64,000 nt of DNA, from NCBI GenBank assembly GCA_964016885.1, contig OZ024742.1:22878001-22942000 (forward strand). The letters are read 5' to 3'. Position numbers and translations under genes: made by a program. This DNA is from Eledone cirrhosa (taxonomy: Eukaryota). Positions 1,627 through 63,497 of the stretch are shown one piece after another. Position 1 is the first letter of the stretch. The number at the start of each line of letters is the position of its first letter. A model generated the notes under the pieces. The model made no database searches, was not told the origin of the DNA, and was given only the letters and a program-made list of their open reading frames with translations.

Positions 1627-2659
1627 ATATTAAATAAATGGAAACTATATTTATAAAACCATATTTTTTCTATTGTATATATTTCAAGGGTACCAAAAAC
1701 ATTCATCAGATAAAATACAAAGAGTGTTTTATAAACTTTGACGTAGCCAAGGAAATCATACCTTATCAGTTGAATTTTCTTGGGTATATCATTAAATATT
1801 TACTCTTGGGTATATCATTGAATATTTCCTCCAGAAAACTGACGAGTGCTCTGAATCAGTTATAAACATTTATATTTGTTGTATTTTCAACAAATTAAAT
1901 ATCCCTTCTACTTATAAATATATATATATATTTATATATACACATATATATGATAAAGAACACAAAAGCGTGTATTTGCATACATAGATACAAACATATA
2001 TAAATATTTACACACATAAATTCATATATACATAGCTGTGTAAATACAAATATGTCATGCATATATATACGTACATACAGACACACATAAATACACATAT
2101 ATACACACGTACGTACGTATACACACATATTCCTAATTATATATATATATATTAATATACAGGGGCAGTGAAACTGGGGGGGGGGGGGTATGACTTACCC
2201 AATAATTATAATAATTTCCCAAACTACCAAAACACATCTACTTGTATATGCGCTACAATTTGTGTACATGTTATGTACAAATGGGAGAGATAGATATAAA
2301 TTTCTATTTATTTGCCACCAGGGCATCAAAGATTGGGACAAATACAAAGGGGGGAGTTTACATACATTTAAAAAGACGTGTAAAAACATATAACAAATTA
2401 AATTTAACAATCGATGTCCTCAATGGGGAGGGGCGTTGACATGGATCTCACACACCCCCGAAAAAATGTGCAACCCTCCTCATCAGGAGCACAAAGAGCG
2501 GGTGCTTCCTTCCCCTTCTAATTCTTCTCCTCTCTCACCTACAAGCTGATATAGAGAGAAGGCCCATTCACTCGGGCCATTCTCGCTACTTTCACCCACC
2601 TTTCATAAATCTTGCTGGGGTAGAGCACCTCTCTCTCCATTCTGATCCTTCTTCTAAAG

Positions 2660-5600
2660 TGGTACTTGAAAAAAAAGACCAGTTGTTAGCCGGAGAGAAA
2701 GGTGTCTGACCTCAGTCCATTCAACCTTGTCCACCATACAACTTCTTTCGCCATAGCTATCACACAGAGGAAAACCGCCTCTCCTTCGTTTTTGAAAGGG
2801 GGAGGCGGTTTGAACGTGACAATGTTCTCGGTGGTCAACCGGATTGGTCCCACCCGCGACAGTAGTAGTTCCACATAGCCCCACATCTAGCAACGCCCGG
2901 GAAGTGTACGAATGCGTGTGCGACGGTTTCCTCGTCACGCACACATCTCGGACAGATCTTCTTAGAGGGGTCCCTACCCGGGCGCCCGTGTCTGTAGAGC
3001 TTGTCCCGAACGGGTAGAGATCCTCGGTAAAATTGCCAAGCCAGGGACTTTTGGAAGTTGTCCATCGGTCCCGGGCCAAACGTCCTACCGAACAGACTTG
3101 TCAGCTCATCTTCCTCCATGCCCAGAGCCTCTCCGAGAGCGTCGTCGCACTTACTGCGCACCAACCCTCTATAGAATGTTGAGGTTGAGTCTCCACTGAT
3201 TGCCGGATCCGCTTGCCAGAGGGCCGTGAGCGCCTGGGCACATTCAATGTGCCAGTCGCCCACTTTTCTCGGTCTTTGCTTGACCCAGGATTGCAGCTCG
3301 GTGAGTGAGACGAGTCTCGGAAAGGCTCGCCTCACAAACAGGGCCCACACCGGCTAACCGGTGAGGAATAGCTGGAGGTGCCGTAGCCTTAATGCGTATC
3401 TACGCATCGTCAGCCACAGCATCCCCAGCCCTCCGTTCGAAGGGTGTTGACAGCAGATGGATCTTCTCACCAAAGGAGCCCGTTTCTTCCAAAGTAATCG
3501 GAAGAGCGCGCGCTCCATTTTGGCGAGTGTTTTCTCTGGGCAAGACACGACGGTCAAGCGGTAGTAGATGACGGACGCTATATAAGCGTTCGCCACCTCC
3601 GCTCGACCTTTCAAGGATAGTTTGCACTCGGCCCACTTCTGGGCAAATGCAAACACCTTGCCCGTTACCTTGTCCCAGTTTTTCTCCACCTGTCCGGTCC
3701 GAACTAGACCCCGAGCATCTTCACCGGTTCCTCCGTCCAGCGTCCGACGATGCCGTCAGAGGGCATCGGTTTGCCCCTCCACGTCCCGAGTTGCAAACCG
3801 ACGGACTTGTCCCCGTTCAGCTTGGCTCCTGTGAACCTTTCATATTCCTCCAGTAAGGTGCCGATCTGCCCGATTTCCGAGGCGCACGACACCATTACTC
3901 TCACGTCATCGGCATAGACCGACACCGCTTTCCGCAATCCCGGTTCCAAGGGGATACCCTGCAACAGCACCAGCTTCCGCAGCAGTGGCTCGAGAGCCAG
4001 GTCATACAGGAGGGAGGAGAGAGGGCATCCCTGTCGGATGGATCGCGTGATTTGGAACGGCTCCGAGAGGTAGCCGTTCACCTTGACCCCCGAGTAGGTT
4101 ATGCTGCTGTGCATTGCAGCAATCCAGCCCCTGAAAACGGGTCCGAAGCCTGCCGCAGCGAGCACCGCATCTAGGTACCGATGGTCAACCCTATCGAACG
4201 CCTTAGATTGATCCAAGTTGATCAGGGCCCCACCAAAGCCGGGTTCGTTCCCTACCCTCTCTACGATGTATCGCATGAGGTGGAGGTTGTCGTGTATGGA
4301 CCTGGACGGGATTGCGCATGTCTGCGCTTCTCCCACCAGGTTCCCGACGACAAGCGCCAACCTCTTCGCTAACACCTTGGCCAAAATCTTTAACTCTGTG
4401 TTTAGCAGAGTTATGGGCCTGAAGTTATCTATGTCATCACCCTTGTTCTCGTCCTTCCTCACCAGCGTGACTACGCCCTTGGTCACAGAACTGGGAATTC
4501 TCCCGTTCTGTTGCCAGTTGCAGTAGACCGCCTCGAGGAGACCGGAGTACAAGCCCGGCATCGCTACATAAATTTCGTATGGTAGACCATCGAGACCCGG
4601 AGATTTGCGTTTGCCGCATTGGCTCAGCACTTCCCCTATTTCAGCGGCTGAAATCGGCCTCTCGCAGGACTTCGCCTCCTCGTCCGAGAGCCGCGCCAGA
4701 CCGTCGAGGTATGGACCGAAATCCATGGCCCCACCCGGCCCACCGCCTCTCCCGAACAGTCGTGCAAAGCGCCGTTGAAAGGCCACGCTCATCCGCTCAG
4801 GTTCAAGGATCACGCGTCCATCCTGGTTCTTCAAAGACCGAATCGTGGACTTGTTTCCACTTTTTGCCTCTGTCACTCGGGCCCAGCTAACAGCTTTAGC
4901 TCCCTCGTTATCCAGAGCACGTATTTTACTCCTGACAACGCAGCCCTCGTGCTTCGCATCAAAGAACTGGTCTAGGACCGTTCTTGACGCCAGCACGCCG
5001 GCCACGTTGCCACTCCTAATCGCCTCTTCTACTCTATCTATTAATTCCCTTTCAGTTCTATTCCTATCTGATGCTAATTCCCGACTAAAACCTATCGATT
5101 CTATTCTAATTTCTCTCTTGAGAGAGCCCCACCACCCGCTGTTGACAATTGCCCCCGTCAACCGCTGCTTAACTAGTGTGCTAATCCGCTTACTGTAAGC
5201 TTTATTTGTCGGTAAAGACAAGTTTAGCTTCCAGTAACCGGGTTCCTGTCTATGAGTTCTATCAAGGTTGACCACTCCGGTCACCAACTTGTGATCCGAA
5301 TAGTCAACCATGAATATTCGTGGACAGCTTAATATGTCCCTATCCTTATTTCTAACTCGGAAACTATCTAGGTACGATCTAGATGTTCCGGTGCGGTTAG
5401 TCCACGTCCACAGTGACACAGTCGGAAAATCTAGTCGATATCTATCGGCCAGATCAAATCGGCCGATTAATCGTTTGAGGCTGTTACACTCCCCTCTATC
5501 GGTACATGCCCCTACATAGTCCCAACGTGCATCCAGGATACCATTCTAGTCCCCCACTAAAAGCAAGGAGCGAGACGTTCCCAGGAAATTCTCCAGGCGT

Positions 5601-9256: not shown

Positions 9257-9318
<62 letters not shown>

Positions 9319-9322
<4 letters not shown>

Positions 9323-9670
9323 GGAAAAAATGAAACGAAATTTCATTTCCCACTCTTAGTACGGCTGTTACTTAAATATAAGTATGTACACGTACATAAA
9401 TATATGTATACAGACGTACAGTAGTATGTATATATATATATATACATACATGCACACATATATATATGTACGTATGTGTTGAACAAACGAGCAACGATGG
9501 TTGCTGGACACTACGGCTTAATACGGGATGTTTGTTTACAAACACACCGAGCATTATAATAAATGTTCGGTGAATCCATACGTACATATATATATGTGTG
9601 CATGTATGTATATATATATATATACATACTACTGTACGTCTGTATACATATATTTATGTACGTGTACATA

Positions 9671-9676
<6 letters not shown>
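9319..9676 (+). mobile_element. Truncated and 5'-inverted copy of the 425-nt hammerhead repeat (ribozyme itself missing)
   Basis: 9319-9475 is an inverted arm like 40377-40508; 9477-9676 matches 40571-40772. Confidence 0.85.
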
Positions 9677-9709
<33 letters not shown>

Positions 9710-16133: not shown

Positions 16134-16682
16134 TGCATGAGCGTATATGTATACATCTATGCATCTCTGCGTCTATGTGTATGCATGTGAGCGTATATGT
16201 ATACATCTATGCATCTCTGCGTCTATGTGTATGCATGTGAGCGTATATGTATACATCTATGCATCTCTGCGTCTATGTGTATGCATGTGAGCGTATATGT
16301 ATACATCTATGCATCTCTGCGTCTATGTGTATGCATGTGAGCGTATATGTATACATCTATGCATCTCTGCGTCTATGTGTATGCATGTGAGCGTATATGT
16401 ATACATCTATGCATCTCTGCGTCTATGTGTATGCATGTGAGCGTATATGCATACATTTATGCATCTATGCGTCTATGTGTATGCATGTGAGCGTATATGT
16501 ATACATCTATGCATCTATGCGTCTATGTGTATGCATGTGAGCGTATATGCATACATTTATGCATCTATGCGTCTATGTGTATGCATGTGAGCGTATATGC
16601 ATACATTTATGCATCTATGCGTCTATGTGTATGCATGTGAGCGTATATGCATACATTTATGCATCTATGCGTCTATGTGTAT
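16134..16682. repeat. 50-bp tandem minisatellite, about 11 copies
   Basis: Unit atgcatgtgagcgtatatgtatacatctatgcatctctgcgtctatgtgt. Confidence 0.97.
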
Positions 16683-17132
16683 ATATGTGTGCGTTGATAC
16701 GTTCCTTTATGCAATACAATAATCCAGAATGCAGGAATCCCATCCAATATATTGATAGTACGTTAGCATCTAGATGTTTCTTATATTAGCAAGACAACAA
16801 TATATGTTTATAGATTTTTCCTTTGCAAATCAATCCTCCGACTGAACGAAATCTAGATGATGTAAATGAAGAAAATATCAGGAATTTCTACTCCTCCTAC
16901 ACTACCATATGTAATATTGTTTTTGTATTGATTTTTTTCTGGGGTGGGGGGCGGAAAGGAGGCATTGGTTCCCTGCTTGATGACATTGGATTACTTGGCA
17001 GTGATTAAAAATATATTGAGTGTGTGTGCTTGACATGTTTAGGTCATAGGATTTCTCAGGCAAAACATATATATAGATACACACACACGCATATATATAT
17101 ATATATGTATATATATATGTATATATATGTAT

Positions 17133-17196
<64 letters not shown>

Positions 17197-22639: not shown

Positions 22640-23045
22640 AACAATTGATGCTTTGGATAGGGTCAAATAGATGTCGTTAGACATGCACAACCAAACGTAA
22701 CGCCTAAACCAATCAGCTTTAGTAATCTAGTGAAACCACACACCGATTGGTCGAAATACAGTTACAAAACTTAGCATTCTCTAGCCCCATTTTGCTGTAT
22801 ATAAGGCACAGATTTTACCCATCTCATTACAGTCAACTTGACTGTCACCACTGAATATGAACCTGAAGATTGCAAAAGCATGAAAGTACTTGTTCAATTA
22901 ACATTTAACATGTAACATTCTACCATACTATTTCATTATCATATCATTATAATTTTAAACGATTGTAAATAAAACGAGTAAATCAGACAAAGTTGGAAGT
23001 CCTTTTATTAATATAATCTTCTATACACAATCATACACACCCGTG
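22640..23045 (+). mobile_element. Non-coding hammerhead-bearing repeat (pseudo-LTR-like); second copy at 27083-27300
   Basis: 22835-23045 aligns with 27083-27300; both end in acacacccgtgta followed by TA-rich repeat; 5' boundary uncertain. Confidence 0.7.
22858..22896 (+). ncRNA. Minimal type I hammerhead ribozyme (U.U at the base of stem II)
   Basis: UGAAC-CUGAAGA-U-UGC(aaaa)GCA-U-GAAA-GUAC-UU^GUUCA; palindromic stem III AGUACU. Confidence 0.78.
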
Positions 23046-28289: not shown

Positions 28290-30147
28290 GACCCTGTCAC
28301 GTGACCACCAACACGGCCAGTCTGTGGAGCTAACATTGCTAGTAACTACAGACTGTCCTACTTCCTCTCCCTGATCATACGCCCTATCATTGAAATGTCC
28401 CCAGATGTATGTGACAGCACGGAGGACCTCCTCCGCAGAATCGGCGAGCGTAACCGATCTAGGGACCTAACAAACTGCATAATAGGTAGTATGGATGCTG
28501 TGTCTCTGTATCCATCTATTGACGTGGATTTTGCTGTGAAGAAATCCGTAGAAATGATCAGTGAGAAGAATGTTAAGTTCCGTGGGATTGATACCAGTGA
28601 GCTGGGACTCCTACTTAAACTTACCTATAGTAATAATTACCTAGACACATATGACCTTAGCAACCTGTGCCCTACAAGACCAGCAAGAGGCCGACCACCT
28701 ACCATTACCTCAATGGCCAAGAAAACCCACACAGATAGATGGAACGGGTGGACCAGAGCCATACGGACACCCGAAAACCACGATGAACTGAAGAAAATGA
28801 TTGCACATGCGGTAGGGGCCAGCATAAAACTAACCCTTAAGGTACATATGTTCAAATTTAATGGAAAAACATATGCCCAAGAGAAAGGAGCAGCCATTGG
28901 TGTTAGCATTGCAGGCGACATAGCTAACTTATTCATGGTATAGTGGGACAGTAGACTTAAACTTAAACTTAAAGAACAATTAGAAGACCCCTTAACCCTC
29001 ATAATGTACTCCCGCTACGTTGATGATATAAACATCGTAGTTAAGACACCCCCACTAGAGAACAGTCAGGAACTAGAGAAAAACACAATGGAAATCATCC
29101 AGCAAATAGCTAACTCCATCCACCAGAGTATTAGAGTTACTATAGACTACCCAAGTAAACACCCCAACCATCGATTACCTGTACTAGACACAGAGCTCTG
29201 GTTAGATACCATTAATAACAAAAAACAAATCCTCCATTCCCATTATGCCAAACCCATGACTTCCAAACATCTGATCCACCGAAACTCGGCCGTTTCGGAC
29301 CATACCAAAATCAACATACTGATTGCGGATTTGGTACGGGTGATGAGAAATGTGTCCCGCATGTGCAACCCCGAAGAACTAGAGAGACACATACAACACT
29401 TCATCCACCGTATGCAGTTCTCTGGTTACAATCAGAGAGATAAAATCAGAGTGTATAGAGGAGCCAGAACCAAATGGGAAAAAAATGCTAAATAATGACA
29501 CAAATAGGACCTGCCCCTTGTATAGGAGCAAATTTTGGAATAGAATAGAAAGAACTAGGAATAAGGCTAATAGAATAAACTCATGGTATGATAGCAATAA
29601 ATAGCAGAGTGTAATGTTCATCGATACAACCCCTAGAGGTGAATTAGCTTACAAATTTAGAAGCGCCCTAGATAAACATAAACTCAATATTAAGATAGTA
29701 GAAAGACCAGGTACCTCCGTAAAAACACTTATTAGCAAGACATACCCTTTTCAAAGACCCCCCTGTATAGATAAGAAATGTATAATCTGTAAAATAAGCC
29801 CCCATATTAACTGTAAAACTAGAAATGTAGTATATAGCATAAGATGTACTGAAGGACAATGTAGAGACATAAATATAGTGTACATAGGTGAGACAGCTCG
29901 TAGTGTAGGGGAACGGATAAATGAACACTGGCGAGACCTTCAAGATAGTAAAGAATCATCTGTACTGTGCCAACATGCTAAAATAGAACATAAGGGAAAA
30001 TTAGAGAACATAGAAATAAAAATAGAATCTACACACAGAAAAGACGCAATGTTTAGACAAATCACAGAGGCAATAAACATAAAAGAATTACAACCAAAAT
30101 TAAATAGAAAATATGAGTGGAACAGCAACATCACAACTTACAATTAA
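28290..30147 (+). pseudogene. Penelope-like reverse transcriptase / GIY-YIG endonuclease, with stops and a frameshift
   Basis: IIGSMDAVSLYPSI, YAQEKGAAIGVSIAGDIANLFM, YSRYVDDI, LPVLDTEL, HYAKP, then VVYSIRC...YIGET across 28395..28943, 29004..29495 and 29614..30147. Confidence 0.92.
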
Positions 30148-32054: not shown

Positions 32055-33245
32055 ATATAAGATCAAAAGATGGTTAAAAGTGTTCCAAGTATTTTATTAT
32101 GCGCATTTCAAAAACAAATATCATCATGGGATGATATCTGCGTTCTCATCAGATAAAATCGGGTGACATGAAGCTTAAAAAACACTTGTGAATAGTGAAG
32201 TTTTAAATCAACATATAAAAAATAAATTAAGATTGATGTATGAGATTGGGAAAAAAGTGAGGGGGGTGGGGTGGAAAAGATAAGGAAGAGGAAGAGATGA
32301 GAGTAAAGGATGGTGGGGGAGGAGTATAAGAAGGAAGGATGAGAGAGGACGAGAGATGGGTGATAGAGAGAGAGAGATAGCCTTTACAACTGAGAAAAAA
32401 AAATATATTGTCTCACAGAGAGAAATTAAAAAGCCGTTGGAAGATAATAGATAATTTAAAAGATTTTGAAATTAAAAGTTAATGAGGTTTATGCATGAAG
32501 AAAAAGGAATTAAGAATAGTATTAAATTAAGGTTTGTATATTGAAGGGTTTAATAATATGTGCGAGGAAAAGAATTTATTAATATGTATTATTAAAATGA
32601 AAATATTAATGTTATTAAGGATATAATGTGAAAAGAAGGAGAAGAATGAATGAGTTATGAATTTAGAGGAATTAATTAGGGTTTAAGTTTCTTTTTATGT
32701 AATGTAATATGTGTACGTAAATAGTTTGTTTAAAATGAGCGCGGAAGGAAAGAAGAAAATAATGTTTAACGAAGAAAATATCTAACATCAAAAAGTATAT
32801 ATGTTTACGAAATATTTTCTAATGGTAATAATATAATATATTAAAAGAAATTAGTTAGGGTTTAAGTTTATTTTTATGTATTGTAATATGTAAAAGTCAA
32901 ATTAAGTAATAGTTTAAAACGAGCATGAAAAGATGGAGGAGATAAGAAAAATTTAAGGAAGAAAAAAATCTAATGTCAAAAAATTATATGTTTACGAAGG
33001 ACTTCTAATGGTAATACTATAATGTATTAAAAAAATAATTTTTATGGCCAATGATATGAGGAAAGATGGAAGAATGGATAATATTGTGGTAAGTAATAAT
33101 AAGAATTGAGAAGTAGTTGGGAAGAAAAATTACAGATTAGAGGTTAGAAATTAAAAAGAAAAAAGGAAGAAAGGAAAATGATAAAGAGGAATGATATAGA
33201 ATGAGTAAATTGTATTATATAATATATAATATTGAAATAAGGTAG
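32055..33245 (-). mobile_element. AT-rich decayed Penelope-like relic with an internal duplication of about 170 bp
   Basis: Strong strand-biased composition, hammerhead at its 3' end, 32675-32845 similar to 32853-33030; no readable ORF. Confidence 0.5.
32091..32159 (-). ncRNA. Type I hammerhead ribozyme with a long stem II
   Basis: AUUUUAU-CUGAUGA-GAACGCAGAUAUCAUC(ccau)GAUGAUAUUUGUUUUU-GAAA-UGCGCA-UA^AUAAAAU. Confidence 0.8.
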
Positions 33246-33689: not shown

Positions 33690-36400
33690 CCACACACCCA
33701 TAACATACATTGATAACTCACCCACAATATATCATACATGAACATGACACACCCATAACATAACCACAACATAACATACACACACTTAACATACCCATAT
33801 CATAACACACACACACACACATAACATACCTACAACATAACATACACACATAACATACCCATATCATAACACATACACACACATAACATAGCCACAACAT
33901 AACATACACACACATAACATAGCCACATAATAACATACACATACACACACATAACATAGCCACAACATAACATACACACATACACACACACATAACATAG
34001 TCACAACATAACATACACATACACACACATAACGTACACACAACATAACATACCCACAACATAACATACACACACACATAACATACCCACAACATAACAT
34101 ACACATACACACACATAACATACCCACAACATAACATACACATACACACACATAACATACCCACAACATAACATACACATACACACACACATAACATAGC
34201 CACACGACAACATAACATACACATACACACACATAACATACCCACAACATAACATACACATACACACACACATAACATACCCACAACATAACATACACAT
34301 ACACACACACATAACATAGCCACACGACAACATAACATACACATACACACACATAACATACCCACAACATACACATACACACACACATAACATACACATA
34401 CACACATAACATACACATACACACACACATAACATAGCCACACGACAACATAACATACACATACACACACATAACATACCCACAACATAACATACCCTCA
34501 ACATAACATACACACACATAACATACCCACAACATACACATACACACACACATAACATACACATACACACATAACATACACATACACACACACATAACAT
34601 AGCCACACGACAACATAACATACACATACACACACATAACATACCCACAACATAACATACACATACACACACATAACATACCCTCAACATAACATACACA
34701 TACACACACATAACATACCCACAACATACACATACACACACACATAACATACACATACACACATAACATACACATACACACACACATAACATAGCCACAC
34801 GACAACATAACATACACATACACACACATAACATACCCTCAACATAACATACACATACACACACATAACATACCCACAACATACACATACACACACACAT
34901 AACATACACATACACACATAACATACACATACACACACACATAACATAGCCACACGACAACATAACATACACATACACACACATAACATACCCACAACAT
35001 AACATACACATACACACACATAACATTCCCACAACATAACATACACATACACACACATAACATAGCCACAACATAACATGCACATACACACACATAACGT
35101 ACCCACAACATAACATACACATACACACACACATAACATAGCCACACGACAACATAACTTACACATACACACACATAACATAGCCACAACATAACATACA
35201 CATACACACACACATAACATAGCCACACGACAACATAACATACACACACACACACATAACGTACCCACAACATAACATACACATACACACACACATAACA
35301 TAGCCACACGACAACATAACATACACATACACACACATAACATACCCTCAACATAACATACACATACACACACACATAACATAGCCACACGACAACATAG
35401 CATACACATACACACACATAACATACCCACAACATAACATACACATACACACACACATAACATAGCCACACGACAACATAACATACCCTCAACATAACAT
35501 ACACATACACACACACATAACATAGCCACACGACAACATAGCATACACACACACACACACACATAACATACACATACACACGCATAACATAGCCACACGA
35601 CAACATAACATACACATACACACATATAACATACACATACACACACATAACATACCCTCAACATAACATACACATACACACACACATAACATAGCCACAC
35701 GACAACATAGCATACACATACACACACATAACATACCCACAACATAACATACACATACACACACACATAACATAGCCACACGACAATATAGCATACACAT
35801 ACACACACATAACATACCCACAACATAACATACACATACACACACACATAACATAGCCACACGACAATATAGCATACACATACACACACATAACATACCC
35901 ACAACATAACATACACATACACACACACATAACATAGCCACACGACAATATAGCATACACATACACACACATAACATACCCACAACATAACATACACATA
36001 CACACACACATAACATAGCCACACGACAACTAGCATACACATACACACACATAACATACCCTCAACATAACATACACATACACACACACATAACATAGCC
36101 ACACGACAACTAGCATACACATACACACACATAACATACCCTCAACATAACATACACATACACACACACATAACATAGCCACACGACAATATAGCATACA
36201 CATACACACACATAACATACCCACAACATAACATACACATACACACACACATAACATAGCCACACGACAACATAGCATACACATACACACACATAACATA
36301 GCCACAACATAACATACACATACACACACACATAACATAGCCACACGACAACATAGCATACACGCACATAACAGCTACAAACACACACACCACACCCAGA
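33690..36400. repeat. Complex CA/CATAA-based satellite of about 2.7 kb
   Basis: Alternating modules cataacatagccacacgacaa, cataacatacccacaa and cataacataccctcaa linked by catacacatacacaca. Confidence 0.95.
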
Positions 36401-37985: not shown

Positions 37986-38304
37986 GCTGTTACAGGTAAA
38001 CTGCAATGTATTTCCTTGAGAGTTATGAGAAATTAGTAGCTATGTAAACAATAGAATCGAAGACAATAGCAAGAAGTAGAATTTACAGCTTTGGTTTTTA
38101 ATTGATGTTATTTAAGTTTTCAAAATTATGGAAAATCTTCTGCTTTATGTAGACAGTCCCCAGCATGGAACAACCTACCTGCATTAGTTGTTAGCTGTCG
38201 GGACACTTCATCTCTCAAAACCTCCTTGCTTCCCCGAAATTTGCCAAAACTAGACCTGATATTCCCCTTCCATAAAGTGAACAGTGTATGAGTTATGATA
38301 TAAT

Positions 38305-38478
38305 TGTTTCTACTTTTGGCACAAGGCCAGCAATTACCCAGTGTATTACTAGTACTTTATTTTATTGATTCCGTAAGGATGAAAGGCAAAGTTAACCTCG
38401 GCGGGATTTGAACTCAGAATGGCAAGGGCCGTACCTCTATGCGTCAAAGCATGGCGTCCGACCCTCTACCGATACTGC
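38305..38478 (-). mobile_element. Meta-type SINE
   Basis: Reverse complement of the consensus. Confidence 0.88.
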
Positions 38479-38481
38479 TAA

Positions 38482-38747
38482 TATTGTGTACAGTGCTCAG
38501 ATGCAATACAACTCATCAAAGGTACATAGAAAAATTGTTTCTACTTTTGGCACAAGGCTCAAATGTGAGAAAAGTGAACAGTGTATGAGTCATGATACAC
38601 ACATACACACACATACACACATGCGTGCGTGTATCATGACTCATACACTGTTCACTTTTCTCACATTTGAACCTTGTGCCAAAAGTAGAAACAATTATTC
38701 TATGTACCTTTGATGAGTTGTATTGCATCTGAGCACTGTACACAATA
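38482..38747. repeat. Near-perfect inverted repeat, arms about 118 bp with a CA-rich loop
   Basis: 38482-38600 is the reverse complement of 38628-38747. Confidence 0.92.
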
Positions 38748-38771
38748 ACTTTCATTATATCATAACTCATA

Positions 38772-39160
38772 GGCGGTGGACTGGCAGTATCGGTAGAGGG
38801 TTGGACGCCATGCTTTGACGCATAAAGTTACGGCCCTTGCCATTCTGAGTTCAAATCCCGCCGAGGTTAACTTTGCCTTTCATCCTTACGAGGTCGATAA
38901 CATAAAGTACCAGTAATGCACTGGGTAATTGCTGGCCTTGTGCCTAAAGTAGGAACAATTATATCATAACTCATAGGCGGACGATTGGCAGTATCGGTAG
39001 AGGGTCGGATGCCATGCTTTCCAGCATAGTTACGTCCATTAACGATCTGAGTTCAAATCCCGCTGGGGTTGACTTTGCCTTTCATCCTTACGGGGTAGAT
39101 AAAATAAAGTACCAGTAATGCACTTGGTAATTGCTGGCTTTGTGCCAAAAAGTAAAAACA
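38772..39160 (+). mobile_element. Two tandem Meta-type SINEs separated and flanked by the same 18-bp sequence
   Basis: attatatcataactcata at 38754-38771, 38958-38975 and 39161-39178. Confidence 0.9.
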
Positions 39161-40013
39161 ATTATATCATAACTCATACACTGTTCACTTTTCTCATATT
39201 TGTACATTACTCTATGTATATTACATGCACCTTTGATGAGTTGTAGTGCACCTGAACACTGTACACAATAATTCTCATTACTATTTCTGTTTTGCTTTCC
39301 TAGCACAACTAAATGTAGATAGTTATATCTCGTATAGTACTTTAGTAATATAAAACTAATAAACTATTTTATTAGATGATAAACATAATAACTGAAATTT
39401 CGGGTTTTATAATTTTCAGGTATTGACAAACATATTCTATAAGTTCTTTGTTATGTTGAAAGAAGACACAGCGAAGAAAAGAAAGATAAGAAAAGGTTAG
39501 AAAAATATAGAAAGACATAACAAGTTATTTATTGGTTGGCACAATTTAGAATAACAATGAAAAAATATATTTAAATAAAGAAGATATTGTTATTAGATGT
39601 AAATAAATATCTTACTATCTGACTTTATGCTAAAGAATTTAAGATATTTAACTTTTAAGGGTTATAGAAGAAAGTTTTAAAACAGCTAAAATCTCTACAC
39701 ATATACAAATAGACGAGGTAACACAATCTTATACGATTATTACGCTAAGTAGTCACACATAGAACTTTATTTACTATGATTATTTCTTTATATTCAAATT
39801 ATTTTGAAAAGACATCGTAAAATCTCAGTGAAGCAGAAACTGAAGCTAGAATGTTTACACTGATTACACCGTATACCAAACAGATTTAACTCACAAATAC
39901 CTTACCAATTCTACACCACTACACAGCGTTACAAGCTTAGGGGAAAAAACCAAAAGAATTAAAACATTAAAAATATATATAGTCTTGCACAACAATCTGA
40001 GGGTAACCTATAA

Positions 40014-40278: not shown

Positions 40279-40377
<99 letters not shown>

Positions 40378-40516
40378 AACGGAAAAAATGAAACGAAATT
40401 TCATTTCCCACTCTTAGTACGGCTGTTACTTAAATATAAGTATGTATACGTACATACATATATGTATACAGACGTACAGTAGTATGTATATATATATATA
40501 CATACATGGAAGGGAT

Positions 40517-40559
40517 ACGTTGCTGACGATAGCTAATAAGCTTGAAACTAGTACAGCGT
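40517..40559 (+). ncRNA. Type I hammerhead ribozyme, predicted cleavage after 40553
   Basis: ACGUUG-CUGACGA-U-AGCU(aaua)AGCU-U-GAAA-CUAG-UA^CAGCGU. Confidence 0.85.
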
Positions 40560-40941
40560 TCCTTTGTCAGTGTTGAACAAACGAGCAACGATGATTGCTG
40601 GACACTACGGCTTAATACGGGATGTTTGTTTACAATACAAGCACACCGAGCATTATAATAAATGTTCGGTGAGTCCATACGTACATATATATATGTGTGC
40701 ATGTATGTATATATATATACACACTTCTGTACGTCTGTATACATATATGTATGTACGTGTACATACTTATATTTAAGTAACAGCCGTACTAAGAGTGGGA
40801 AATGAAATTTCGTTTCATTTTTTCCGTTTACCGTTTTCGGTGCCCCCGGCCGATTAACCCACTCGATATGCAAATTGGGCTGCTCAGCCGTTAATATGCA
40901 TAAGGTAAGTATATACGTTCAACAATCTGGCAGGAAGGTAT

Positions 40942-40984
40942 ACGTTGCTGACGATAGTTAATAAGCTTGAAACTAGTACAGCGT
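40942..40984 (+). ncRNA. Type I hammerhead ribozyme, predicted cleavage after 40978
   Basis: Same motif, stem II AGUU/AGCU (wobble); stem I extends with CUGGCA/UGUCAG. Confidence 0.83.
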
Positions 40985-41289
40985 TCCTTTGTCAGTGTTG
41001 AACAAACGAGCAACGATGGTTGCTGGACTCTACGGCTTAATACGGGATGTTTGTTTACAAGCACACCGAGCATTATAATAAATGTTCGGTGAATCCATAC
41101 GTACATATATATATATGTGTGCATGTATGTATATATATATATATATACTACTGTACGTCTGTATACATATATGTATGTACGTGTACATACTTATATTTAT
41201 ATATATATATATCCGTGTGTATCGTAAATGAAATTGTAGATATATTCTAGAGAAGGATAAAGTGAGAGAAAAGAAGTGGAACAGAGAAC

Positions 41290-41840
41290 TAGATGAATAA
41301 TCGATCCAAGTATTAGACTAGTAGTTTTGTATTGACCTCGAATGAAAGAAAGGTAAAGTTGAGCTCGGAGGAATTTGAACTGAGAGAGCCGAGAACCGGA
41401 TCGAATACTGGAAAGCATTCTACCCGACCTTCTAATGACTCTGCCAATTCACTGATTGTTTCAACATATAACCATTCTATATATATCCTCTTGACGGAGC
41501 TGGATAGAATAGATTAGCAGATGATAATGACTAGATAAACTTTGAAGAGCCCTCTGCTGGATCAGAGATGATTTGGTGTTAAACAATTAAACTACAAACA
41601 CTACTACAACAATAACATTAAATACAATAACAACGATGTATGACATAAGCTTAAGGCCAGCAATATTTAGGAAGAAGATATCGATTATATCGACACTAGT
41701 GCATAACTGTTATTTAATTTTATCGACCTCGGTAGGGTGAAAGGCAAAGTTGACTTCAGCTGGATTTGAACTAGGAACGTAGAAAGTCGTACTTAAACAC
41801 CACAAAGCATGTTGTCCGACGCTCAACCGATACTGTCAGA
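41290..41840 (-). mobile_element. Two degenerate Meta-type SINEs (about 41290-41450 and 41650-41840)
   Basis: gaaaggcaaagttgac...gatttgaact motifs. Confidence 0.65.
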
Positions 41841-44911: not shown

Positions 44912-45480
44912 GGCGGTAGAGCGTCGGACAACTTGTTTTATGGCATAGGGTTACACCCGATCTGAGTTCAAATCCTGCCGAGGTTAGCTTTCCCCTTCAT
45001 CATTACCAGGGTCGATAAAATAAAGTACCAGTAATGCACTGATATAGATTTAATCGACTTTCCCTTCCGCCCAAATTGTTGGCCTTTATTACTAGATTGG
45101 AAGTATCGGTAGAGGGTCGGACATCATGCTTTGACGCATAGAGTTATGCCCCTTGCCATTCTGAGTTCAAATCCCGCCGAGGTTAACTTTGCCTTTCATC
45201 CTTACGGGGTCGATAAAATAAAGTACCAGTAATGTACTGGTAATTGCTGGCCTTGTGCCTAAAGTAGAAACAATTATTACTAGTATAAAAGGGCGGTAGA
45301 TTGGCAGTATCGGAAGAAGGTCAGACAGCATGATTTGCAACAAAGAGTTCCGGCCCTTTATGGTCTGAGTTCAAATCCCGTCGAGGTTAACTTTGCCTTT
45401 CATCCTTGAGGGGTCGATAAAATAAAGTACCAGTGATGCACTGCGAGTTTTGCTGGCCTTGTGCCAAAAGTAGAAACAAT
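44912..45480 (+). mobile_element. Three head-to-tail Meta-type SINEs
   Basis: B box and Meta-type body repeated at about 44960, 45160 and 45365. Confidence 0.88.
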
Positions 45481-45489
45481 TATATATAT

Positions 45490-50308: not shown

Positions 50309-50393
50309 ATACACATATATATATTCAAACATATATATATACATACATATATATATATATACATATATAAATATCTAAATATATATATATACA

Positions 50394-50894
50394 TTACATT
50401 TAAGTACCAGCCGTACTAAGATTGAGAAATGAAATTTCGTTTCATTCTTTTCCATTTATCGTTTTCGGTGCGCCCGGCCGACTAACTCACTTGAATGCAA
50501 ATTAGGCTGCTCAGCTGTTAATATGCATAAGGAAAGTATATACTTTCAGACGTTCAACCATCTGACAGAAAGGTATACGATGCTGACGATAGCTAATAAG
50601 CTTGAAACTAGTACATCGTTCCTGTGTCAGTGTTGAACAAAAAGATGACGATGGTTGCCTGAAAACTGTACGGCGTAATTCGGGCTGTTGGTTTGTTTAC
50701 AAACAAACCGGGCATTATAATAAATGTTCGGTAAACCCATACGCACATATATAAATGTGTGCATGTATGTATATATATATACATACTACTTTACGTCTGT
50801 ATACATATATGTATGTACGTATACATACTTACTTACATTTAAGAAACAGCCGTACTAAGAGTGAGAAACGAAATTTCGTTTTATTCTTTTCCAT
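50394..50894 (+). mobile_element. Diverged copy of the retrozyme-like repeat, about 1.1 units with a direct terminal repeat of about 60 bp
   Basis: 50394-50455 is repeated at 50834-50894; colinear with 40770-41199. Confidence 0.83.
50577..50619 (+). ncRNA. Type I hammerhead ribozyme, predicted cleavage after 50613
   Basis: ACGAUG-CUGACGA-U-AGCU(aaua)AGCU-U-GAAA-CUAG-UA^CAUCGU; perfect stem I plus CUGACA/UGUCAG extension. Confidence 0.87.
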
Positions 50895-55782: not shown

Positions 55783-55849
55783 TATTTTATTATACATATT
55801 TCAGAGGCACTGAGTTATGTTGAACAGTACGTCCTCATCAGATAAAATA
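55783..55849 (-). ncRNA. Type I hammerhead motif in an AT-rich relic (about 55645-56600)
   Basis: UAUUUUAU-CUGAUGA-GGACGUACUG(12 nt)CAGUGCCUCU-GAAA-UAUGUA-UA^AUAAAAUA. Confidence 0.75.

Positions 55850-62944: not shown

Positions 62945-63497
<553 letters not shown>

Follow-up and report, generated by a model that had tools for sequence, protein, structure and literature searches.

The locus at 40376-41199 is one aged copy of an abundant, non-coding jumping repeat with a predicted self-cutting RNA. It lies in the window analysed here, a stretch of 64,000 nucleotides from Eledone cirrhosa (contig OZ024742.1, positions 22,878,001 to 22,942,000), which holds two further copies of the same family. 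Positions within the repeat are numbered by unit 1 (q1-425 = 40508-40932), and the features are as follows.

40356-40375, no strand: left (TA)n flank, putative target site
40376-40508, minus strand: inverted, 5′-truncated arm (q193-323), 96% alike to 40700-40830; it ends at q323 and adjoins (TA)n
40508-40932, plus strand: unit 1 of the direct arm (q1-425), 5′-truncated 9 nt upstream of stem I of hammerhead 1
40517-40559, plus strand: type I hammerhead 1, predicted GUA cut after 40553 (direct reading and descriptor scan)
40554-40978, plus strand: predicted cleavage monomer, 425 nt
40606-40788, plus strand: predicted long-range helix (40606-12/40782-88) round a hairpin (40644-71) and a TA/CA-rich self-complementary rod
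40776-40830, plus strand: 55-nt "tail" between the fixed 3′ ends q268 (=40775) and q323 (=40830)
40933-41199, plus strand: partial unit 2 (q1-268), which ends at the upstream fixed 3′ end and runs into (TA)n
40942-40984, plus strand: type I hammerhead 2, predicted cut after 40978 (direct reading and descriptor scan)
41200-41212, no strand: right (TA)n flank, putative target site
9318-9680, plus strand: second family copy, direct q63-268 plus inverted q169-323, without a hammerhead
50313-50892, plus strand: third family copy, of an older subfamily (81-86% alike), with one hammerhead at 50583

The locus and its two hammerheads

The original prediction described a free tandem array at 40377-41199. 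The locus instead consists of 1.6 units (40508-41199, units 1 and 2 being 93.8% alike) and an inverted arm that was missing from that description, with (TA)n on both sides. The inverted arm carries the 55-nt tail, and both fixed 3′ ends finish in TTTA. Because (TA)n forms both flanks, a target-site duplication is unreadable. We infer that the window copy is an aged insertion product of 1.6 units.

Direct reading and the descriptor scan agree with the prediction of two head-to-tail type I hammerheads, each with an intact CUGACGA/GAAA core and a GUA triplet, and direct reading again places the predicted cuts after 40553 and 40978, 425 nt apart. In hammerhead 1 a 6-bp stem I (40517-22/40554-59) is joined to CUGACGA (40523-29), a 4-bp stem II of AGCU/AGCU (40531-42), GAAA (40544-47) and the palindrome ACUAGU (40547-52), which was expected at stem III and is present in both hammerheads. 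The base of stem II carries a U·U mismatch (40530/40543) that had gone unmentioned. Hammerhead 2 differs by a single C>U change in stem II, giving a U·G wobble. Helix I has 6 bp, helix II 4 bp and helix III 1-2 bp with a palindromic loop; the term "minimal" was misapplied, the architecture being canonical type I by the definitions in PMC4209133. The helix AGCAAC/GUUGCU of the original prediction is perfect in unit 2 and reads AUUGCU on its second strand inside the 425-nt monomer (40594 = A); the remaining helices that were named are all present in the sequence.

A loose descriptor finds seven motifs in the window, three of them in the family described here (40523, 40948 and 50583); 100 rough dinucleotide shuffles gave 0.03 on average and never more than 1. 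The Rfam hammerhead models give no match to the locus (three unrelated matches at E<=10), and a wider Rfam search holds no hammerhead among the matches listed (150 of 161). Rfam microRNA matches in the window fall below threshold and come from TA-repeat noise.

Stem III of a single hammerhead is reduced to one pair over a CUAG loop, since two nucleotides are too few to close it. A dimer would allow the crossed stems I and the ACUAGU duplex to nest without a pseudoknot. Forced into a double hammerhead, 40505-41010 has a folding energy of -160.5 kcal/mol against -145.6 for two single hammerheads, a gain of 15 kcal/mol; the unconstrained fold is an inactive form at -164.0, which is 3.5 kcal/mol below the double hammerhead. 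With the inverted arm in the transcript, a long duplex is predicted (p=1.00) that disrupts the monomer fold, and the double hammerhead comes out 96 kcal/mol worse. The window copy is therefore a doubtful source of circles, and in the model a transcript begun upstream of the inverted arm would be unable to release one. The same U·U mismatch occurs in an axolotl retrozyme hammerhead, which as a monomer was cleaved to 22% within one hour and did better as a dimer (PMC7229834); one of nine predicted retrozyme dimers of Xenopus was cleaved in vitro (bioRxiv 10.64898/2026.07.22.740005).

The window contains repeats of several other kinds. A fold-back at 38287-38975 (arms 38482-38603/38626-38747, 98%, inside 38287-38478/38784-38975, 94%) is centred on a CA/TG repeat and made of a common ~200-bp interspersed repeat. 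A SINE-like repeat of ~202 bp with a B-box-like motif occurs in tandem pairs (38754-39178, 45093-45483, 41698-41839), and ARAGORN finds no tRNA gene in the window. GC-rich LINE-like endonuclease/RT frames lie on the minus strand at 2657-5545 (longest 613 codons), and minisatellite arrays at 33736-36373 and 16138-16694 have periods of ~81/162 bp and 50 bp. A match at 17083-17193 is microsatellite only.

A dispersed family with a conserved predicted fold

In DNA the unit is non-coding, carries one type I hammerhead and occurs in tens of thousands of copies. The 3.0-Gb genome holds 9,961 exact 32-nt cores and, across subfamilies, 27,601 exact 21-nt cut-site motifs, the reversed controls being 0 in both cases. 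A grouping of 178 cut-to-cut monomers, which came from overlapping loci, yields a young subfamily of ~419-433 nt, intermediates, a 442-nt group and a sister subfamily of 460-493 nt that is ~20% away from the young group. Both the descriptor and covariation place a hammerhead in each unit. The predicted monomer 40554-40978 has 38.6% GC. The unit is non-coding, as predicted, and offers only a stop-free frame of 162 codons, on the minus strand through the TA-rich part. No LTR-internal-LTR layout occurs in the mapped loci. An intron around the hammerhead was considered and discarded, the donor-like site at ~40904 being confined to the young subfamily and created by an 8-nt deletion. Parts of the unit are present in public contigs (three organisms, three studies); these contigs, from four sequencing runs of which one (X1) may derive from the source sample itself, show presence and fixed ends, not expression.

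The copies range from short insertions to arrays of kilobases. The array L114/L115 has ~40 units, L205/L206 extends over at least 18 kb, and 10 kb of L207 was read. Satellite-sized arrays of sister subfamilies occur at C2:60.577-60.595 Mb (L205/L206) and C2:382.99-383.04 Mb, one of the two with a ~4-kb higher-order period and an expanding internal (TA)n. The 4-kb spacing at C2:60.58 Mb, considered as a coding partner, turned out to be a higher-order array.

Folded as a circle, the monomer has a predicted energy of -136.2 kcal/mol and a z score of -6.6 (60 shuffles), which is inflated by the TA-rich rod. The predicted circle is 68% paired and closed by stem I with an extension (40561-40578 with 40917-40938). 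Across 16 monomers chosen over the subfamilies 97.7% of cells are paired, and 11 of the 103 predicted pairs are changed on both sides, compared with at most 5 in slid controls; the subfamilies are few and related, and the structure was predicted from the same alignment. The compensatory changes between subfamilies include the long-range structure at 40606-40788. One pair of stem I occurs as G·U in 12, A-U in 10 and U·G in 8 of 30 cases. Such changes point to an RNA under selection. Between young and sister monomers, 3 of 43 sites differ in the hammerhead and 64 of 342 elsewhere, a lower divergence that is only suggestive; many loci were picked by core patterns, so the invariance of the core is not independent evidence.

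Non-coding, tandem, high-copy units with a hammerhead in each and a covarying structure are the marks of a metazoan non-LTR retrozyme, and the identification made in the original prediction holds at the level of the family, of which we are, on these sequence features, highly confident.

Insertion ends and the probable template of reverse transcription

A total of 47 insertions (72 arms) were mapped from the first 100 of 6,964 matches to the q246-268 pattern, a sample biased toward copies reaching q268. Of the 72 arms in this sample, 66 end close to q268 or q323, and TA repeats follow directly in 49 of these 66. Two-armed insertions mostly have one end per arm (19 of 25), with q323 twice in one and one other end in five; one-armed insertions end at q323 (17 of 22), q268 (4 of 22) or elsewhere (1 of 22). 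When the sample was picked by q1-173 instead, 27 of 28 distinct insertions ended at the q268/q323 sites, and the public contigs likewise have loose ends at 40775 and 40830 that continue as (TA)n. Truncation at the 5′ end, partial tandems and adjacent inverted 5′-truncated arms recur in the mapped insertions. The 5′ ends that cluster at q129 probably reflect misalignment at a 5-nt insertion in the window copy.

Penelope-like elements (PLEs) have the same layout, with a tail at one end only and inverted arms (Craig et al., 10.1101/2021.04.23.441226), and in the PLE of Anolis the tail is the stretch between two internal start sites of reverse transcription (Frangieh et al., PMC11167929). By analogy, q268 and q323 would be reverse-transcription start sites. 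The insertion ends suggest that Penelope-like retrotransposon enzymes copy the unit round the genome, and it is very likely that its spread is PLE-driven. The choice between retrozyme and Penelope posed in the original prediction is thus a false one, as the insertions carry the Penelope signature of tail and inverted arm. The unit is likely to be a non-autonomous non-LTR retrozyme that is mobilised in trans by PLE machinery.

The proposed mechanism begins with multimeric transcripts that would cleave as a double hammerhead, ACUAGU pairing with ACUAGU between neighbouring units; this form of cleavage is proposed because each single hammerhead is weak. The monomers would be ligated into circles, in which the lone hammerhead would be nearly inert. 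A PLE reverse transcriptase/GIY-YIG protein, most likely Neptune-like, would nick both strands of (TA)n, prime internally at two sites 55 nt apart and read through the ribozyme junction for up to several units. Twin priming would yield a direct arm together with an inverted one, the tail being confined to one end, and some arrays would later grow by duplication at the DNA level. We tentatively read the insertions as a possible record of such twin-primed rolling-circle reverse transcription by a Penelope-like enzyme. The template would be a structured circular RNA, made by the ribozyme and without sequence in common with its helper, and each primed strand would run round it several times. If so, the start sites of reverse transcription of a retrozyme would have been mapped, and PLE proteins would recognise their parasites by RNA shape rather than by pseudo-LTR homology. 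The literature consulted gave no account of such a process.

If a cleaved linear monomer served as template, 5′ ends would pile up at q47. Such a pile-up is absent genome-wide, with 18 ends at the cut against 35 at a control site; 12 of these 18 were read and 6 of the 12 are true 5′ ends. Among the 72 mapped arms none begins within q44-50, and 52 contain a cut site. The template is therefore a circle or an uncleaved multimer, and a cleaved linear monomer is excluded as the usual one.

It is quite possible, though rather against our expectation, that PLE enzymes instead copy uncleaved linear multimers transcribed from existing arrays, in which case the hammerhead would be dispensable for insertion and the long arrays would stem from DNA-level expansion. 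Such a template predicts the same lack of a 5′ pile-up. Hammerhead mutants of the Anolis PLE left insertion unchanged, and uncleaved RNA is its dominant substrate in vitro (PMC11167929). There is also no ligation scar at the cut, where one-base insertions number 1, against 9 two bases away. Expansion at the DNA level is visible in L116, where units A and B alternate along the array but the inverted arm matches neither of them, and in L149, in which a variant is shared along one arm only. A heterodimer circle was considered for the A-B arrays (L116 and L034), for which later DNA duplication is likelier given the inverted arm of L116.

Against an uncleaved multimer stand near-identical units across the arms of young insertions such as L117 (5 differences in 6,253 cross-arm comparisons) and hammerhead pairs kept across subfamilies that are ~20% apart. 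Cross-arm divergence is also independent of unit rank (0.033 for the same rank, 0.032 for different ranks, p=0.47; 17 insertions having 40 or more sites in each class, of 33 rows, one duplicated locus being counted twice), a test of low power since young parent arrays would be uniform too, divergence between insertions being 0.039. On balance we lean slightly towards a circle as the usual template rather than an uncleaved multimer. In one insertion (L168/L169, C2:365192750 and C2:365193277) both arms have an insert of 19 nt precisely at the cut site, which was therefore probably in the RNA template; in this single case it is possibly a fragment ligated at the junction.

Candidate helpers and relation to known elements

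Hammerhead-bearing autonomous PLEs co-exist with the retrozyme in the genome. PLE-type frames of two Neptune-like families number 83,421 and 33,204 first-look candidates, with frames of up to 743 aa, many of them of 713 aa. We call these families Neptune-like on the strength of motifs and of cysteines clustered ahead of the GIY-YIG region rather than of a tree; Pfam leaves their frames unrecognised, and L155 did give RVT_1 and GIY-YIG. Both families have hammerhead-like motifs of their own and two ends ~90 nt apart, which are followed by (TA)n in 6 of 15 and 4 of 10 cases and in 5 of 19 and 8 of 22. Sequence kinship with the unit was found in neither family (30 + 30 loci, the second family without its 3′ region), and a relaxed hammerhead pattern led to no coding partner in 250 matches, of which 30 loci were read.

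Other PLE and hammerhead sequences are scattered through the loci. At L112:4100-8340 an inverted pair of Neptune-like elements has (TA)n at its centre, into which a retrozyme is inserted, an instance of shared target use. The window itself has fragments of Penelope-like RT and GIY-YIG frames (28305-30144, plus strand; 393-1358 and 62970-63335, minus strand) that are unrelated in sequence to the unit, other-family hammerheads on the minus strand (55791-55841 and 32098-32152) that are like the minimal motifs before Neptune-like open frames, and a hammerhead motif of another family on the plus strand (22863-22891). At least four further hammerhead families occur in the flanks of L019, L082, L088, L103, L055, L117, L141, L156 and L159. 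The genome is likely to hold other retrozyme or PLE families.

We consider it rather unlikely that the driver is a hammerhead-less Naiad or a member of another PLE clade, and not Neptune-like. Naiads prefer (TA)n, share these tails and inversions and have been recorded in Octopus spp. (Craig et al., 10.1101/2021.04.23.441226); several other PLE and hammerhead families are present in the fetched loci, and the 55-nt tail of the unit differs from the ~90-nt tails of the two Neptune-like families. These two families nevertheless are very abundant, have long open frames and target (TA)n, and a Neptune-like enzyme is still the preferred driver.

The unit could also be the pseudo-LTR of a coding Penelope-like element, its short copies being 5′-truncated remains. 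Its ends do have the PLE anatomy, and some copies (L016, L051 and L112) have PLE open frames next to them. In the mapped loci, however, q323 leads on to q324-425 with a further hammerhead or to host DNA, pure arrays extend over kilobases, and the neighbouring PLEs that were read are separated by (TA)n and have different hammerheads and tails of their own. This reading is very unlikely; no sampled copy is such a pseudo-LTR, the outcome against which the original prediction had staked its claim. A dead satellite or minisatellite, spread by DNA recombination only and with a chance or vestigial hammerhead, would account for the large satellite-like arrays with higher-order periods but is scarcely credible in view of dispersed copies with fixed 3′ ends, variable 5′ ends and inverted arms, and of compensatory changes that point to RNA selection.

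Non-LTR retrozymes, the class to which the unit is assigned here, are an established kind of element and have been argued to be non-autonomous PLE derivatives (bioRxiv 10.64898/2026.07.22.740005). PLEs were proposed as retrozyme helpers on co-occurrence and, in frogs, sequence kinship. In the present family the ends characteristic of PLEs can be read to the base across many insertions. Two putative start sites are now named, together with local helper candidates that have long open frames, so that an existing in vitro PLE assay could test circle versus multimer directly. In its host the unit may further be a large and hitherto unreported source of circular or double-stranded RNA. The literature listings consulted show no cephalopod retrozyme and no retrozyme tails or inverted arms; the family may already be catalogued in literature supplements, in Lunse et al. 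2017 or in Dfam/Repbase. As a class, metazoan non-LTR retrozymes are characterised by units of about 150-450 bp in dimers to multimers, by the lack of an LTR, a primer-binding site and a polypurine tract, by target-site duplications that, where they occur, exceed 4 bp, and by linear and circular RNAs of unit length in tissues.

The metazoan non-LTR retrozymes described from Acropora, Mytilus and axolotl (Rtz331/Rtz353; Cervera and de la Pena 2020, PMC7229834) are species-specific units. They resemble the present family in their tandem non-coding units of a few hundred nt with GC below 50%, in one canonical type I hammerhead per unit and in a self-paired circle that permits the hammerhead fold, which is predicted here. 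The weak palindromic helix III is shared with the axolotl hammerhead HHR_Amex1 and the U·U under helix II with HHR_Amex2, whereas here both weakening features are found in one ribozyme. At 420-490 nt the present unit is at or above the reported range, and it has a tail and an inverted arm, here known from DNA, features that were not seen in that account.

Li, Clavereau and Pollet (bioRxiv 10.64898/2026.07.22.740005) reach the same conclusion of PLE mobilisation, also with monomers, dimers and multimers, and find co-occurrence with Neptune/Poseidon, as here with Neptune-like elements. Their evidence is co-occurrence and pseudo-LTR kinship in 35 mostly vertebrate genomes, whereas here it is insertion anatomy, pseudo-LTR kinship with the two Neptune-like families not being found; "tail" and "mollus-" have 0 occurrences in the main text of that preprint.

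Among PLEs, the non-autonomous members of Chlamys, MRC1 for example, are as a rule similar to their autonomous partner at the 3′ end, and hammerheads are missing from most Chlamys (Craig et al.), whereas the present element has a hammerhead and its partner was not found. The tail of 55 nt is longer than the 30-40 nt reported for PLEs (PMC11167929; Craig et al.). The closest likeness in layout is to Poseidon PAc of Anolis (PMC11167929) and to Neptune/Naiad (Craig et al., 10.1101/2021.04.23.441226), which share with the unit two internal 3′ ends, a tail at one end, 5′ truncation, partial tandems, an inverted 5′ arm and AT-rich or (TA)n targets; in contrast to them, the present unit has no ORF and its hammerhead is canonical, not minimal.
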